DNA from: Escherichia coli | GTDB lineage: Bacteria; Pseudomonadota; Gammaproteobacteria; Enterobacterales; Enterobacteriaceae | NCBI RefSeq assembly: GCF_003334385.1 | Contig: NZ_QOWN01000006.1 | DNA: 64,000 bases | Strand: one strand, 5' to 3' | Shown: positions 1,135-7,059 of the stretch, in pieces | Position numbering within the stretch: the stretch's first letter is position 1 | Layout: the number at the start of each line of letters is the position of its first letter | Translations under genes and position numbers: made by a program | The notes under the pieces: model-generated | What the model saw: only the letters and a program-made list of their open reading frames with translations | Databases searched by the model: none | Told to the model about the DNA's origin: nothing

Positions 1135-2058
1135 TCAGGCATGCTCCAGTGAAAAATTCGGGTAGTGCTCGGCAAAATACTGGCGTAAAAATTCTACCGT
1201 TATCCGCACTTTCGCTGACGTCGCCAGCCTTGAAACATAAACGGCCCAGACGTTCGCTGGCTGGTAATATTCCGGTAGCACTTGCACTAAATGACCACTG
1301 GCAATGTTTTCGCTAACATCCCACCAGGAACGCAGAGCAATCCCCTGCCCATCGAGACACCACTGATGGACAATTTCTCCATGATTAGACGACAGTGGGC
1401 CGGTGACTTTAATCGCATGGGGGCCTTCTTTATTGCGTAATTGCCAGACACCAAAAGGATGATCGCGCTCTTTAATGACCAGGCACGGCAATGCAGAAAG
1501 ATCGGTTAAATGTTTCGGCGCGCCATGTTGCGCAATAAATTCCGGCGACGCGCAGAGAATACGGTAATTGGTCGCCAGTTTGCGGGCGATTAAATTAGGG
1601 GCGATGTCATCGCCAATGCGAATATCGAGATCGACACCTTCATTGACCAAATCGACCAGTCGGTCTTCCACATCAAAACGTAATTCCAGTTGCGGATACG
1701 CCTTCGCCAGCGCTGATAACGCCGGAGCCACCACCTGTCGTCCAAAACCAAAGCTGCTGATAATACGCAGCATCCCCTGCGGCACCTGACGCACGTCAGA
1801 AAGTTCGTCCATCATCTGACCGACATCCTGCAAAATCCGCTGCGCCCATTCATAAATCCGCTCTCCTTCTTCGGTAATGGTGACGCGGCGGGTGGTGCGG
1901 TGTAACAACACCACGTTTAGCGTTTGCTCCAGCAAGGCGATGCGCTTGCTGACGAACGCCGGTGAAACGCCCAGTTCTTCCGCCACGGCGGCAAAACCAG
2001 CCCGGCGAGCCACCAGCATAAAGACGCGCAAATCATTCAGCAGCGGTAAATTATTCAT
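1135..2058 (-). CDS. dmlR: LysR-type transcriptional regulator DmlR
   Basis: Track ORF 1135-2079; N-terminal HTH; known protein starts MNNLPLL (ATG at 2058), divergent from dmlA. Confidence 0.85.
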   Translation of the reverse strand: MNNLPLLNDLRVFMLVARRAGFAAVAEELGVSPAFVSKRIALLEQTLNVVLLHRTTRRVTITEEGERIYEWAQRILQDVGQMMDELSDVRQVPQGMLRIISSFGFGRQVVAPALSALAKAYPQLELRFDVEDRLVDLVNEGVDLDIRIGDDIAPNLIARKLATNYRILCASPEFIAQHGAPKHLTDLSALPCLVIKERDHPFGVWQLRNKEGPHAIKVTGPLSSNHGEIVHQWCLDGQGIALRSWWDVSENIASGHLVQVLPEYYQPANVWAVYVSRLATSAKVRITVEFLRQYFAEHYPNFSLEHA

Positions 2059-2160
2059 GATTCGTGTTTTATGTTTCACCAGTTACGGGGATTAATTCCT
2101 TTTCAGTCAATTATAGGATGGTGATGTTGTCAATTTTGATGGTCAGGAAGTGAGAACCCA

Positions 2161-3246
2161 ATGATGAAAACGATGCGTATTGCTGCGATCCCGGGAGACG
2201 GGATTGGCAAAGAAGTCCTTCCTGAAGGGATTCGCGTGTTACAGGCTGCCGCTGAGCGCTGGGGCTTCGCCTTGAGTTTTGAGCAAATGGAGTGGGCGAG
2301 CTGCGAGTATTACAGCCATCACGGTAAAATGATGCCGGACGACTGGCATGAGCAACTTAGCCGTTTCGACGCCATCTATTTTGGTGCCGTCGGCTGGCCG
2401 GATACCGTTCCGGACCATATTTCGTTGTGGGGTTCGCTGCTGAAATTTCGTCGTGAATTCGACCAGTACGTCAACCTGCGCCCGGTTCGTCTCTTTCCTG
2501 GCGTTCCCTGCCCGCTGGCGGGAAAACAGCCTGGCGACATCGATTTTTACGTGGTCAGGGAAAACACCGAAGGCGAATATTCCTCGCTCGGCGGTAGAGT
2601 GAATGAAGGTACAGAGCATGAAGTCGTCATTCAGGAATCGGTATTTACCCGCCGTGGTGTCGATCGCATTTTGCGTTATGCCTTCGAACTTGCGCAAAGC
2701 CGTCCACGTAAGACACTAACTTCTGCCACTAAATCGAACGGTTTAGCCATCAGCATGCCGTACTGGGATGAGCGAGTGGAAGCAATGGCCGAGAATTACC
2801 CGGAGATCCGCTGGGACAAGCAGCATATTGATATTCTCTGCGCGCGTTTTGTGATGCAGCCGGAACGATTCGATGTGGTGGTGGCGTCCAATTTGTTTGG
2901 CGATATCCTTTCCGATCTTGGCCCGGCCTGCACCGGCACCATTGGCATTGCCCCATCCGCCAACCTGAATCCGGAACGCACTTTCCCGTCGCTCTTCGAG
3001 CCTGTCCACGGTTCCGCGCCGGATATCTACGGGAAAAATATTGCTAACCCTATCGCCACGATTTGGGCCGGGGCAATGATGCTCGATTTTCTCGGCAATG
3101 GCGATGAGCGTTTCCAGCAAGCGCATAACGGTATTCTGGCAGCAATTGAAGAAGTGATTGCTCACGGGCCGAAAACACCTGATATGAAAGGCAATGCCAC
3201 CACGCCACAGGTTGCCGACGCGATTTGCAAAATTATTTTGCGTTAA
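2161..3246 (+). CDS. dmlA: D-malate dehydrogenase (decarboxylating), isocitrate/isopropylmalate dehydrogenase family
   Basis: Track ORF 361 aa; MMKTMRIAAIPGDGIG start. Confidence 0.9.
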   Translation: MMKTMRIAAIPGDGIGKEVLPEGIRVLQAAAERWGFALSFEQMEWASCEYYSHHGKMMPDDWHEQLSRFDAIYFGAVGWPDTVPDHISLWGSLLKFRREFDQYVNLRPVRLFPGVPCPLAGKQPGDIDFYVVRENTEGEYSSLGGRVNEGTEHEVVIQESVFTRRGVDRILRYAFELAQSRPRKTLTSATKSNGLAISMPYWDERVEAMAENYPEIRWDKQHIDILCARFVMQPERFDVVVASNLFGDILSDLGPACTGTIGIAPSANLNPERTFPSLFEPVHGSAPDIYGKNIANPIATIWAGAMMLDFLGNGDERFQQAHNGILAAIEEVIAHGPKTPDMKGNATTPQVADAICKIILR

Positions 3247-3266
3247 GGTCAAACCAGTTTATTTGA

Positions 3267-3291
3267 ACCGCGTCACTGACGCGGTTTTTTT
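3267..3291 (+). terminator. rho-independent terminator after dmlA
   Basis: ACCGCGTC-ACT-GACGCGGT hairpin followed by T8. Confidence 0.7.
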
Positions 3292-4882: not shown

Positions 4883-4913
4883 GCGCCATCATCCTAACGA
4901 TAAAGGTATCCCT

Positions 4914-6038
4914 ATGAGCAATCTGAGCCCTGACTTTGTACTACCCGAAAATTTTTGCGCTAACCCGCAAGAGGCGTGGACCATTCCTGCCCGTTTTTAT
5001 ACCGATCAGAACGCGTTTGAACACGAAAAAGAGAACGTCTTCGCCAAAAGCTGGATTTGCGTCGCTCACAGCAGCGAACTGGCGAATGCCAATGATTATG
5101 TGACGCGTGAGATCATTGGCGAAAGCATCGTGCTGGTACGCGGTCGTGATAAGGTTTTGCGCGCGTTCTATAACGTGTGTCCGCACCGTGGTCATCAGTT
5201 GTTGAGCGGTGAAGGAAAAGCAAAAAATGTGATTACCTGCCCGTATCACGCATGGGCATTCAAACTCGATGGCAACCTGGCCCATGCACGTAACTGCGAA
5301 AACGTCGCCAATTTCGATAGCGACAAAGCGCAACTGGTTCCGGTGCGTCTGGAAGAATATGCCGGATTCGTCTTCATCAACATGGACCCCAACGCCACCA
5401 GCGTAGAAGATCAATTACCCGGCCTGGGCGCGAAAGTGCTGGAAGCCTGCCCGGAAGTCCACGATCTGAAACTGGCGGCCCGCTTTACCACCCGCACGCC
5501 TGCCAACTGGAAGAACATTGTCGATAACTATCTCGAGTGCTATCACTGTGGTCCGGCGCATCCAGGTTTCTCCGACTCCGTACAGGTTGATCGTTACTGG
5601 CACACCATGCACGGTAACTGGACGCTGCAATACGGTTTCGCCAAACCGTCCGAACAGTCGTTTAAATTTGAAGAGGGTACGGATGCGGCATTCCACGGTT
5701 TCTGGCTGTGGCCGTGCACGATGCTGAACGTCACCCCGATCAAAGGGATGATGACGGTCATTTATGAATTCCCGGTGGATTCTGAAACTACCCTGCAAAA
5801 CTACGATATTTACTTCACCAATGAAGAGTTAACCGACGAGCAAAAATCGCTGATTGAGTGGTATCGCGATGTGTTCCGTCCGGAAGATTTACGTCTGGTT
5901 GAAAGCGTACAGAAAGGGCTGAAATCGCGTGGCTATCGTGGTCAGGGGCGCATCATGGCCGACAGTAGCGGTAGTGGCATTTCCGAACATGGTATCGCCC
6001 ATTTCCATAATCTGCTGGCGCAGGTGTTTAAGGACTAA
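4914..6038 (+). CDS. yeaW: Rieske 2Fe-2S oxygenase, carnitine monooxygenase oxygenase subunit (CntA-like)
   Basis: Rieske motif CPHRGHQLL...CPYHAW seen; track ORF over-extended from 4794, start placed at MSNLSPDF. Confidence 0.85.
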   Translation: MSNLSPDFVLPENFCANPQEAWTIPARFYTDQNAFEHEKENVFAKSWICVAHSSELANANDYVTREIIGESIVLVRGRDKVLRAFYNVCPHRGHQLLSGEGKAKNVITCPYHAWAFKLDGNLAHARNCENVANFDSDKAQLVPVRLEEYAGFVFINMDPNATSVEDQLPGLGAKVLEACPEVHDLKLAARFTTRTPANWKNIVDNYLECYHCGPAHPGFSDSVQVDRYWHTMHGNWTLQYGFAKPSEQSFKFEEGTDAAFHGFWLWPCTMLNVTPIKGMMTVIYEFPVDSETTLQNYDIYFTNEELTDEQKSLIEWYRDVFRPEDLRLVESVQKGLKSRGYRGQGRIMADSSGSGISEHGIAHFHNLLAQVFKD

Positions 6039-6093
6039 TGACATCGGCGGCGGTATTTTCTGCCGCTGGGCTGATTTTTGATGGAGTACAGCA

Positions 6094-7059
6094 ATGTCAG
6101 ACTATCAAATGTTTGAAGTACAGGTGAGCCAGGTTGAACCCCTTACCGAACAGGTGAAACGCTTCACGCTGGTGGCAACCGATGGCAAACCATTACCTGC
6201 GTTTACCGGAGGAAGTCACGTCATTGTGCAGATGAGCGATGGTGATAACCAGTACAGCAATGCGTATTCACTACTGAGTTCGCCGCATGACACCTCTTGT
6301 TATCAGATTGCCGTTCGGCTGGAGGAAAACTCGCGCGGCGGTTCCCGCTTTTTGCATCAGCAGGTAAAAGTGGGCGATCGGTTAACGATTTCAACGCCTA
6401 ATAACCTGTTTGCGCTAATTCCCTCAGCCAGAAAGCATCTGTTTATCGCGGGCGGTATTGGTATCACCCCTTTCCTGTCGCACATGGCAGAGCTGCAACA
6501 CAGCGACGTCGACTGGCAGCTACATTACTGCTCGCGAAATCCAGAAAGTTGCGCATTTCGTGATGAGCTAGTCCAGCATCCGCAGGCTGAGAAAGTCCAT
6601 TTGCATCATTCATCAACCGGAACACGACTGGAATTAGCGCGATTATTGGCGGATATCGAACCTGGCACACACGTTTATACCTGTGGCCCCGAGGCGCTAA
6701 TTGAAGCGGTAAGAAGTGAAGCTGCGCGTCTGGACATCGCCGCCGATACGCTGCACTTTGAGCAATTTGCTATCGAAGACAAAACCGGCGATGCATTTAC
6801 CCTGGTGCTTGCCCGTTCCGGAAAAGAGTTTGTGGTGCCGGAAGAGATGACTATTTTGCAGGTTATTGAAAATAATAAAGCCGCGAAAGTGGAATGTTTA
6901 TGTCGTGAAGGGGTATGCGGAACCTGCGAAACAGCAATACTGGAAGGTGAAGCTGACCATCGGGATCAATATTTTAGCGATGAAGAGCGTGCCAGCCAGC
7001 AAAGTATGTTGATCTGTTGTTCGCGTGCGAAGGGTAAACGCCTGGTGTTGGATTTGTAG
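6094..7059 (+). CDS. yeaX: carnitine monooxygenase reductase subunit (FNR-like with C-terminal 2Fe-2S ferredoxin, CntB-like)
   Basis: Track ORF 321 aa; C-terminal CREGVCGTCE cluster motif. Confidence 0.85.
   Translation: MSDYQMFEVQVSQVEPLTEQVKRFTLVATDGKPLPAFTGGSHVIVQMSDGDNQYSNAYSLLSSPHDTSCYQIAVRLEENSRGGSRFLHQQVKVGDRLTISTPNNLFALIPSARKHLFIAGGIGITPFLSHMAELQHSDVDWQLHYCSRNPESCAFRDELVQHPQAEKVHLHHSSTGTRLELARLLADIEPGTHVYTCGPEALIEAVRSEAARLDIAADTLHFEQFAIEDKTGDAFTLVLARSGKEFVVPEEMTILQVIENNKAAKVECLCREGVCGTCETAILEGEADHRDQYFSDEERASQQSMLICCSRAKGKRLVLDL

Follow-up and report, generated by a model that had tools for sequence, protein, structure and literature searches.

A single carnitine catabolism cluster comprising dmlR-dmlA and yeaVWX in Escherichia coli, with a deletion at the 5′ end of yeaV

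Introduction

The carnitine pathway of Acinetobacter baumannii has been reconstituted by Piskol 2024 (PMC11353897). In that pathway, CntAB splits carnitine to trimethylamine (TMA) and malic semialdehyde, malic semialdehyde dehydrogenase (MSA-DH) converts the semialdehyde to D-malate, and the decarboxylating dehydrogenase MDH, an orthologue of E. coli DmlA, converts D-malate to pyruvate (PMC11353897). The genes are arranged as carR-mdh-bcct(aci01347)-hyd-cntA-msadh-cntB, and the cluster has been characterized in Zhu 2014, Breisch 2019 and 2022, and Piskol 2024 (PMC11353897). Orthologues of carR, mdh, bcct, and cntA as well as of cntB occur in E. coli with 45, 72, 56, 72, and 52% identity, respectively, in a cluster without hyd and msadh (PMC11353897). 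Here, we examine these E. coli orthologues, dmlR, dmlA, yeaV, yeaW, and yeaX, at positions 1135-7059 of a 64,000-nucleotide stretch of an E. coli genome (assembly GCF_003334385.1, contig NZ_QOWN01000006.1), which we refer to as the window.

Lukas et al., in 2010, reportedly treated dmlRA of E. coli as a stand-alone D-malate system, and Koeth is said to have described YeaW/YeaX as a carnitine monooxygenase of E. coli in 2014. Recombinant E. coli YeaW/YeaX converts carnitine to TMA and malic semialdehyde in vitro (Piskol 2022, PMC9508527). The window carries the same genes as both of these E. coli systems, and the enzyme itself shows no difference from the published one. The published work on YeaW/YeaX used overproduced proteins, and the chromosomal promoter and the state of yeaV were outside its scope (PMC9508527).

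Results

Gene content and synteny of the cluster

The cluster in the window consists of the following features, called from open reading frames (ORFs), database annotation, and alignments.

1135..2058, minus strand: dmlR, LysR-type regulator, orthologue of A. baumannii carR (45-49% identity; ORF, RefSeq, tblastn).
2161..3246, plus strand: dmlA, decarboxylating D-malate/tartrate dehydrogenase, orthologue of mdh of the A. baumannii carnitine cluster (~72% identity; NCBIfam, synteny, PMC11353897).
3401..4882, plus strand: yeaV, gene for a BCCT transporter (12-TM betaine/carnitine/choline family), 5′-truncated, with an ORF from TTG at 3437 to 4882 (NF007412, PGAP, hydropathy).
4914..6038, plus strand: yeaW (= cntA), group V Rieske oxygenase subunit of carnitine monooxygenase (match to 6Y8J, 19/19 functional residues).
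6039..6093, plus strand: yeaW-yeaX spacer, msadh scar (alignment with Citrobacter).
6094..7059, plus strand: yeaX (= cntB), reductase subunit with a flavin mononucleotide/NADH domain and a plant-type 2Fe-2S domain (2PIA match, motifs, PMC9508527).

All five ORFs lie where an initial annotation, made from the sequence alone, had placed them, as confirmed by the ORF list and RefSeq annotation. This region is 99.9-100% identical to E. coli chromosomes, and bases 1-9000 of the window are 100% identical to E. coli SCU-104 and 99.9% identical to K-12-type genomes; the RefSeq annotation of the matching chromosomes gives identical gene names over the 9-kb stretch. For dmlR, an ATG start was preferred over the GTG at 2079, since the MNN start is kept across genera. 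DmlA scores 565 bits against the tartrate/D-malate dehydrogenase equivalog TIGR02089 (cut-off of 470). A longer yeaW ORF from TTG at 4794 was rejected because the alignment with CntA begins at residue 4 of the protein that starts at ATG 4914. At this level, the locus is textbook E. coli annotation, and its genes, its enzyme, and the carnitine/D-malate pathway logic are already published. Our tblastn identities to the A. baumannii proteins also agree closely with the figures in PMC11353897.

To place the locus among its relatives, we scanned one genome per species and collected 80 cntA loci. The order dmlR (minus strand) followed by dmlA, bcct, cntA, and cntB (plus strand) recurs in Escherichia, Citrobacter, Yersinia, Xenorhabdus, Serratia, Pseudomonas, Acinetobacter, Vitreoscilla, and a Neisseriaceae genome, and is thus common to at least eight genera of three orders. 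The initial annotation had described a D-malate module next to a carnitine cassette. Its gene identities stand, but mere adjacency does not, since D-malate is an intermediate of the pathway (PMC11353897) and the gene order is syntenic across genera. The five genes are one ancestral carnitine cluster, in which the D-malate "module" is the tail end of the pathway, as already described in Piskol 2024. We hold the gene identities, the single-cluster history, and the anatomy of the deletion described below with high confidence.

Relative to A. baumannii, the regulator, dehydrogenase, BCCT transporter, oxygenase, and reductase genes of the window have the same order and orientation. Unlike Acinetobacter, E. 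coli has no acylcarnitine hydrolase gene, hyd (the yeaV-yeaW gap is 31 bp, compared with ~1.1 kb in Acinetobacter) and no msadh, in place of which there is a 55-bp scar. The gap between dmlA and yeaV is 190 bp in the window and 250 bp in the intact E. coli allele, versus 50-85 bp in Acinetobacter; the E. coli gap holds a terminator and a promoter-like footprint, and the BCCT gene of the window also lacks its 5′ end, unlike that of Acinetobacter. The msadh-retaining clusters of Citrobacter (e.g., Citrobacter sp. R56, locus L008) encode YeaV and YeaW with 88-94% protein identity to those of E. coli and have the same dmlA terminator, upstream yeaV box (box 2 below), and -35/-10 footprint. In contrast to the window, these clusters carry a gene for a 488-aa aldehyde dehydrogenase between cntA and cntB, their BCCT gene is full length, and the TTCAC right half-site of the box is intact.

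Two further arrangements were seen among the collected loci. Citrobacter braakii ATCC 51113 has two cntA clusters on different contigs (L014 and L017): cluster 1 has no msadh, a 70-bp cntA-cntB gap, and a YeaW that is 92% identical, while cluster 2 has msadh, a 1.5-kb gap, and a YeaW that is 88% identical. The loci of Paraburkholderia and Burkholderia (L044-L050, L061, L065-L071) keep a dmlR-like regulator, msadh, and cntB and have no BCCT gene adjoining cntA; their dmlA homologue, where present, is located several kb downstream on the opposite strand.

YeaW and YeaX as carnitine monooxygenase

YeaW aligns over its whole length with the solved structure of A. baumannii CntA, 6Y8J (E = 9e-197). 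We took the functional residues of CntA from Quareshy et al. (PMC7948474) and mapped them onto YeaW through this alignment; 19 of the 19 metal-ligand, catalytic, and substrate-pocket residues checked are kept. These include the Rieske ligands C89, H91, C109, and H112 (C86, H88, C106, and H109 of CntA; C-X-H...C-X-X-H) and the mononuclear iron triad H211, H216, and D325 (H208, H213, and D323 of CntA). The bridging residue is a glutamate, E208 (Glu205 of CntA), in place of aspartate, a signature noted in PMC5433236. The pair Cys209/Cys212 corresponds to Cys206/Cys209 of CntA. Pocket residues Y206, F219, Y228, F250, F260, N272, Y297, Y317, and F321 are kept, so that Y203, Y225, F258, N270, Y295, Y315, and F319 of the CntA carnitine pocket are all matched at aligned positions. 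The YeaW of the window is 100% identical to RefSeq WP_000067822.1, which is found in K-12, SE11, and EDL933.

The alignment of YeaX with phthalate dioxygenase reductase 2PIA runs over the full protein (E = 2e-56). YeaX has the nucleotide motif GGIGITP at residue 120 and the cluster motif C270-X4-C275-X2-C278, and it carries R271, K313, and D320, the interface residues named in PMC9508527. We recovered the motifs quoted in the initial annotation: YeaW contains VCPHRGH and TCPYHAW, and YeaX has CREGVCGTC at residue 270. That annotation had matched the pair to the CntA/CntB architecture and had named a lack of the conserved active-site residues as what would refute the match; the alignment shows no such lack. 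The 6Y8J and 2PIA matches, the 19 retained YeaW residues, the YeaX motifs, and the activity reported in PMC9508527 all agree with the assignment. NCBIfam has no CntA or CntB equivalog, and YeaW and YeaX match only related families in it, below their cut-offs; the sequence of the solved CntA structure was therefore used for the YeaW assignment in place of an NCBIfam profile.

A 225-bp deletion removes the start of yeaV

Alignment with EDL933 revealed that the window lacks 225 bp that are present in EDL933 and SE11.

3400..3401, no strand assigned: deletion junction, ATGCAAAT joined to TTTGTTACG, with 1 nt of microhomology (EDL933 alignment).

What is lost is 96 bp of leader with the ribosome-binding site (CCAGGAGATGACTC), then the ATG and codons 1-43 of yeaV. 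We set aside a microhomology-mediated origin of the deletion, as the microhomology at the junction is only 1 nt and there is no informative repeat. Codons 44-55 (3401-3436) contain no start codon, and the first possible start is the TTG at 3437, which corresponds to residue 56, in the middle of the second transmembrane helix (TM2). The uncertainty over the yeaV start that was raised in the initial annotation is therefore real: it reflects a deletion allele without a true start and not an ambiguity of annotation.

The yeaV protein is 536 aa long in EDL933 and SE11. In the window, the remaining sequence scores 968.8 bits against the YeaV equivalog NF007412 (cut-off of 647) and matches profile positions 56-536 of 536. 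All BCCT orthologues in the yeaV position align from residues 1-16 of the 536-aa protein, and the solved BCCT transporters DddT and CaiT align from about residue 16. By hydropathy, TM1 spans approximately residues 10-31 and is gone, and TM2 spans approximately residues 48-69. Judged by the presence of TM1, TM2, a start codon, and a ribosome-binding site, the BCCT gene of the window is incomplete. In K-12-type strains and BL21(DE3), PGAP tags yeaV as a pseudogene "missing N-terminus". A disruption that is apparently independent was seen in Escherichia whittamii Sa2BVA5 (L005, 8359-8998), where the first ~210 codons of yeaV are out of frame with many stops and the 3′ part shares 98% identity with YeaV of E. 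coli.

To estimate how common the allele is, we counted locus states in 5426 complete E. coli genomes. The 225-bp segment is present in 2931 (intact, ~54%), and the identical deletion junction is found in 1438 (~26.5%), which agrees with the 4375 locus-bearing genomes minus 2931. Nearly the whole dmlR-yeaX cluster is lost in the remaining ~1050 (~19%), which retain, between leuE and rnd, only fragments of dmlR (168 bp of its 3′ end) and of dmlA (156 bp from within the gene; e.g., Ecol_276, L087). The deletion allele was verified in MG1655, whose dmlA-yeaV intergenic region is the same 190 bp as in the window, and in BL21(DE3); the intact allele is found in SE11 and EDL933.

A scar of msadh between yeaW and yeaX

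A gene of ~1.5 kb separates cntA and cntB in 60 of 79 loci and is absent in 19, including all five from Escherichia. In Citrobacter sp. R56, this gene encodes a 488-aa aldehyde dehydrogenase of the MSA-DH/GabD-like type. Its closest solved relative is 8S33, deposited as succinate-semialdehyde dehydrogenase [NAD(P)+] (E = 7e-213), and E. coli GabD (3JZ4) scores nearly as high. The 55-bp yeaW-yeaX spacer aligns with the last bases of Citrobacter msadh together with the msadh-cntB spacer, and a Citrobacter genome without msadh has the same kind of scar. This alignment indicates that msadh was lost from Escherichia through a clean deletion between yeaW and yeaX, and the ancestor of Escherichia therefore had the complete pathway. 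Independent, repeated loss of msadh with dmlA kept suggests that another aldehyde dehydrogenase can substitute. The substitute pointed to by Piskol 2024 is GabD, with 62% identity (PMC11353897).

Between yeaW and yeaX, we also observed a terminator-like hairpin at 6044-6069 (dG of -24 kcal/mol, z of -4.0) followed by GCUGAUUUUU. An equivalent is kept in the msadh-cntB spacer of Citrobacter, and the hairpin may serve for attenuation within the operon or for RNA stability.

A second DmlR-type box and a predicted promoter upstream of yeaV

Four elements were located in the two intergenic regions that flank dmlA.

2050..2079, plus strand: box 1, ATTATTCATGATTCGTGTTTTATGTTTCAC, candidate DmlR operator, overlapping the dmlR start codon and ~48 bp upstream of a conserved TATAGG before dmlA.
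3265..3294, plus strand: dmlA intrinsic terminator (hairpin 3265-3287), a 10-bp stem GAACCGCGTC/GACGCGGTTT followed by a T run (dG of -16.9 kcal/mol, z of -3.85).
3334..3363, plus strand: box 2, ATTGTTTCCGTTTCGTGTTTTATGGCTTTC, second occurrence of the box, located upstream of yeaV, with an exact 13-mer in common with box 1.
3375..3403, plus strand: predicted yeaV promoter, with TTGTTT as -35 element at 3375-3380 and, after a spacer of 17 nt, AATTTT as what remains of the -10 element at 3398-3403 (phylogenetic footprint).

The terminator is kept in Escherichia and Citrobacter. All enteric loci have box 1 in their dmlR-dmlA intergenic region (IG1), and Acinetobacter and Pseudomonas share the CGTGT core of the box with them. 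The overlap of box 1 with the dmlR start codon fits the DmlR-dependent, D-malate-inducible expression of dmlA and the negative autoregulation of dmlR that Lukas et al. reportedly found in 2010. Carnitine-dependent binding of purified CarR to the equivalent region, between carR and the operon, is known from A. baumannii (Breisch 2022, as cited in PMC11353897).

The initial annotation had left it unclear whether yeaVWX is controlled by DmlR or has its own promoter and had proposed a search for DmlR motifs in 3247-3436; box 2 is the candidate found in that interval. The 13-mer TTCGTGTTTTATG occurs exactly twice in the 64-kb window, at 2061-2073 (dmlR-dmlA) and 3345-3357 (upstream of yeaV), and the two copies sit in a 24-nt repeat with 79% identity. 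We built a weight matrix from the IG1 boxes only of 25 enterobacterial loci and scanned both strands of each ~20-kb locus with it. The site upstream of yeaV is the best match outside IG1 in 19 of the 25 loci and the second or third in the other six, in every case on the same strand. Among 10 aligned sequences that range from Escherichia to Xenorhabdus, all 10 have the GTGTTTTAT core unchanged. The 30-nt box with its exact 13-mer is promoter-proximal at both sites, and the box is kept across five genera, as expected of a shared operator.

An alignment of the region from Escherichia, Citrobacter, Yersinia, Xenorhabdus, and Serratia shows GTGTTTTAT flanked by ATTATT and TTCAC, a conserved ATTGTTTAATTTATGTAAC that holds the -35-like TTGTTT, and a further conserved TGTTAA. 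Exactly 17 nt after TTGTTT, there is AATAAT in Escherichia and Citrobacter, TATATT in Xenorhabdus, and GATACT in Yersinia. It is on this cross-genus footprint that the proposed yeaV promoter rests. The box stands 50 bp from the -10-like element at yeaV and 48 bp from that at dmlA, a spacing that fits a putative LysR recognition site centered near -55 to -60. The junction of the deletion falls inside the predicted -10 hexamer and changes AATAAT of the intact allele to AATTTT in the window. The TTCAC half-site (window 3358-3366) is kept in Citrobacter, Yersinia, and Serratia and reads TTTCC in E. coli and E. albertii, a change that may represent regulatory decay in a lineage without msadh.

We found no box 2 equivalent in Pseudomonas or Acinetobacter, and the duplicated box is therefore an enterobacterial feature. 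The dmlA-bcct gap of Pseudomonas has other conserved motifs, namely GTTAAC repeats and a TTGTCGGACAA palindrome, and Acinetobacter has almost no gap.

Direct repeats TGTTTAA, TGTAAC, and CGTTAAAC, with 11-bp and 22-bp phasing, were noted at window positions 3376-3394 (L002 4977-5016), where they overlap the predicted yeaV -35 element and spacer; the third repeat is inside the deleted segment. The repeats presumably resemble an ArcA-P box, which would suit an O2-dependent enzyme. In the Pseudomonas loci, the corresponding place is taken by three GTTAAC repeats. Finally, yeaV is listed as a genomic-SELEX target of CRP (PMC3105977). Our search for a CRP box upstream of the gene gave no convincing site, with the best candidates matching 7-8 of 10 core positions and one of them being the dmlA terminator.

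Neighboring features

The cluster is bordered by the following features.

370-1008, minus strand: leuE (ORF and RefSeq annotation).
7063..7108, no strand assigned: strong hairpin where yeaX and rnd converge, which probably serves as a terminator in both directions (dG of -36.9 kcal/mol, z of -6.4).

Downstream of yeaX, rnd and fadD are convergent with the cluster. The window opens, at positions 1-77, with the terminal part of an IS4-like IS421 element, and a 5′ yeaR fragment comes next, at ~75-200; yeaR is split by the same IS421 insertion in BL21(DE3) and in strain CV601gfp.

Discussion

Taken together, these observations and the published work identify the locus as the E. coli form of the aerobic L-carnitine catabolism cluster known from A. 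baumannii. YeaW/YeaX is the two-component Rieske monooxygenase that splits carnitine to TMA and malic semialdehyde, DmlA performs the last step, from D-malate to pyruvate, and DmlR is the divergent LysR regulator. The E. coli cluster is degraded stepwise, through loss of msadh in Escherichia, additionally through the 225-bp yeaV deletion in the window, and through loss of nearly all of the cluster in ~19% of E. coli genomes. In the window, the native transporter is most likely non-functional or badly impaired. We further propose that enterobacterial dmlA is terminated separately and that yeaVWX is transcribed from its own predicted sigma-70 promoter, TTGTTT-N17-AATAAT. With a second operator-like box before that promoter, DmlR probably coregulates both units. 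Because the deletion in the window ends in the predicted -10 element, transcription of yeaWX would probably be weakened in addition to the truncation of yeaV. As to whether yeaVWX is under DmlR control or has its own promoter, the footprint and the boxes suggest both.

Several observations weigh against parts of this model. For regulation, a generic sigma-70 scan of both intergenic regions, with a threshold of 9 of 12 matches, made no call upstream of yeaV, box 2 of Escherichia has a right half that has decayed from TTCAC to TTTCC, and this box could be an inherited remnant or a site for another factor. In the literature searched, there is no report that links dmlA or DmlR with yeaW, of DmlR binding upstream of yeaV, or of a yeaVWX response to D-malate or carnitine. 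Taken alone, the proposal of a DmlR box and a promoter upstream of yeaV has, in our judgment, an even chance of being correct. For the transporter, the remaining yeaV ORF differs from that of EDL933 by 20 synonymous and 0 non-synonymous codons (480 codons compared), and it retains almost all of the BCCT core profile TIGR00842 (positions 7-452 of 452). Moreover, metabolomics of K-12 knockout and overexpression strains found yeaV-dependent metabolite changes, including carnitine depletion on overexpression (PMC10971958), and residual transporter function is therefore possible.

Three alternative explanations deserve consideration. One is that dmlR-dmlA (D-malate use) and yeaVWX (carnitine to TMA) are two functionally independent modules that are adjacent by chance. 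E. coli K-12 is said, after Lukas et al. in 2010, to grow on D-malate via DmlA and DmlR without a need for yeaVWX. In addition, dmlA has its own terminator, msadh as the gene for the linking enzyme is absent in E. coli, and the tested lab strains do not grow on carnitine. Set against these points are the gene order that recurs in at least eight genera of three orders, the demonstrated role of D-malate as an intermediate of CntAB-initiated carnitine catabolism, the box shared by both promoters, and the msadh scar between yeaW and yeaX, which means that the ancestor had the complete pathway. As an account of history, independence is already largely refuted by synteny and the scar, and we consider it highly improbable overall. 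A different alternative is that dmlA-yeaV-yeaW-yeaX form one operon that uses only the divergent dmlR-dmlA promoter, as is apparently the case in Acinetobacter, and that the conserved sequence upstream of yeaV is not a promoter. The short mdh-bcct gap of Acinetobacter (50-85 bp), the action of CarR at a single divergent promoter in the work cited in PMC11353897, and the absence of a consensus promoter upstream of yeaV in the generic scan are in line with this arrangement. In enterobacteria, however, the gap is 250-620 bp long and opens with a strong, conserved intrinsic terminator, -35-like and -10-like blocks are conserved at a fixed spacing of 17 nt, and the second box is ~50 bp upstream of the -10 element, the same spacing as at dmlA. 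A single operon is hence unlikely.

The remaining alternative is that the 481-aa yeaV ORF that starts at TTG 3437, as given for MG1655 in RefSeq and UniProt, is not a pseudogene but encodes a genuine, functional, shorter BCCT transporter. In the LeuT-type fold of BCCT proteins such as BetP and CaiT, TM1 and TM2 lie outside the 10-helix core, which counts in favor of a functional short YeaV. The ORF is also open, has no amino acid change relative to the intact allele over 480 codons, and covers TIGR00842 from 7 to 452; the allele is common (26.5% of genomes), and the yeaV-dependent metabolite shifts were reported in K-12 (PMC10971958). Yet this protein would lack TM1 and the first half of TM2, both of which are present in every orthologue and in the solved BCCT structures, and its odd number of helices would require a change of membrane topology. 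Its sole start is a TTG two bases after AGG, a poor Shine-Dalgarno spacing, and PGAP marks the gene as a pseudogene. The lack of amino acid changes may just reflect a recent deletion, given that the flanks of the intact allele are 99.9% identical. We regard a functional short YeaV as doubtful, though with an appreciable chance, and return to impaired transport as the preferred reading.

The physiology reported for E. coli strains bears on this reading. E. coli BL21, B, and K12 did not grow on carnitine, and BL21 extracts had no carnitine monooxygenase activity (PMC11353897); a search of the PMC11353897 text for truncation of yeaV or a yeaV pseudogene found no mention. The no-growth result could equally reflect the missing msadh or a lack of induction. 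SE11 is credited with native conversion of carnitine to TMA (Zhu 2014, as listed in PMC6200775) and carries the intact yeaV allele, a combination that fits the deletion mattering but is not proof of it. The same table (Jameson 2018) gives K12 DSM 10517 as carnitine-positive, citing Rath 2017. We did not count this entry as evidence of activity, because Rath 2017 used K12 DNA only as a standard for quantitative PCR. We tentatively suggest, as a possibility that we think somewhat improbable when taken in full, that the deletion allele may both put the dedicated carnitine transporter out of action and impair a DmlR-controlled yeaVWX promoter at its -10 element. The negative results for lab strains in PMC11353897 would then be unrepresentative of isolates with an intact allele (SE11, O157), where yeaVWX would belong to the DmlR regulon, be induced by D-malate and/or carnitine, and supply DmlA via a substitute aldehyde dehydrogenase such as GabD.

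Some of these details were not found stated in the literature searched: the anatomy and frequency of the yeaV 5′ deletion, with its junction in the predicted -10 element; the msadh scar; and the duplicated, cross-genus DmlR-type box upstream of yeaV, of which we found no description in the literature searched on the DmlR/DmlA system. The counts of cntA/yeaW genes, mostly from E. coli, have been used to estimate the ability of gut microbial communities to form TMA and trimethylamine N-oxide from carnitine (PMC5433236). In E. coli, the locus exists in three states: intact (~54%), with the 5′ end of the transporter gene and the predicted promoter -10 element deleted (~26.5%), and with the cluster gone (~19%). 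Given this polymorphism and the absence of msadh in all Escherichia, the presence of the gene is by itself a poor guide to function, and the damaged allele is the one found in the lab strains with which function has been judged. The details of the deletion, the scar, and the box are modest, testable refinements that bear on the use of cntA as a marker of TMA formation and on the interpretation of negative results in lab strains.

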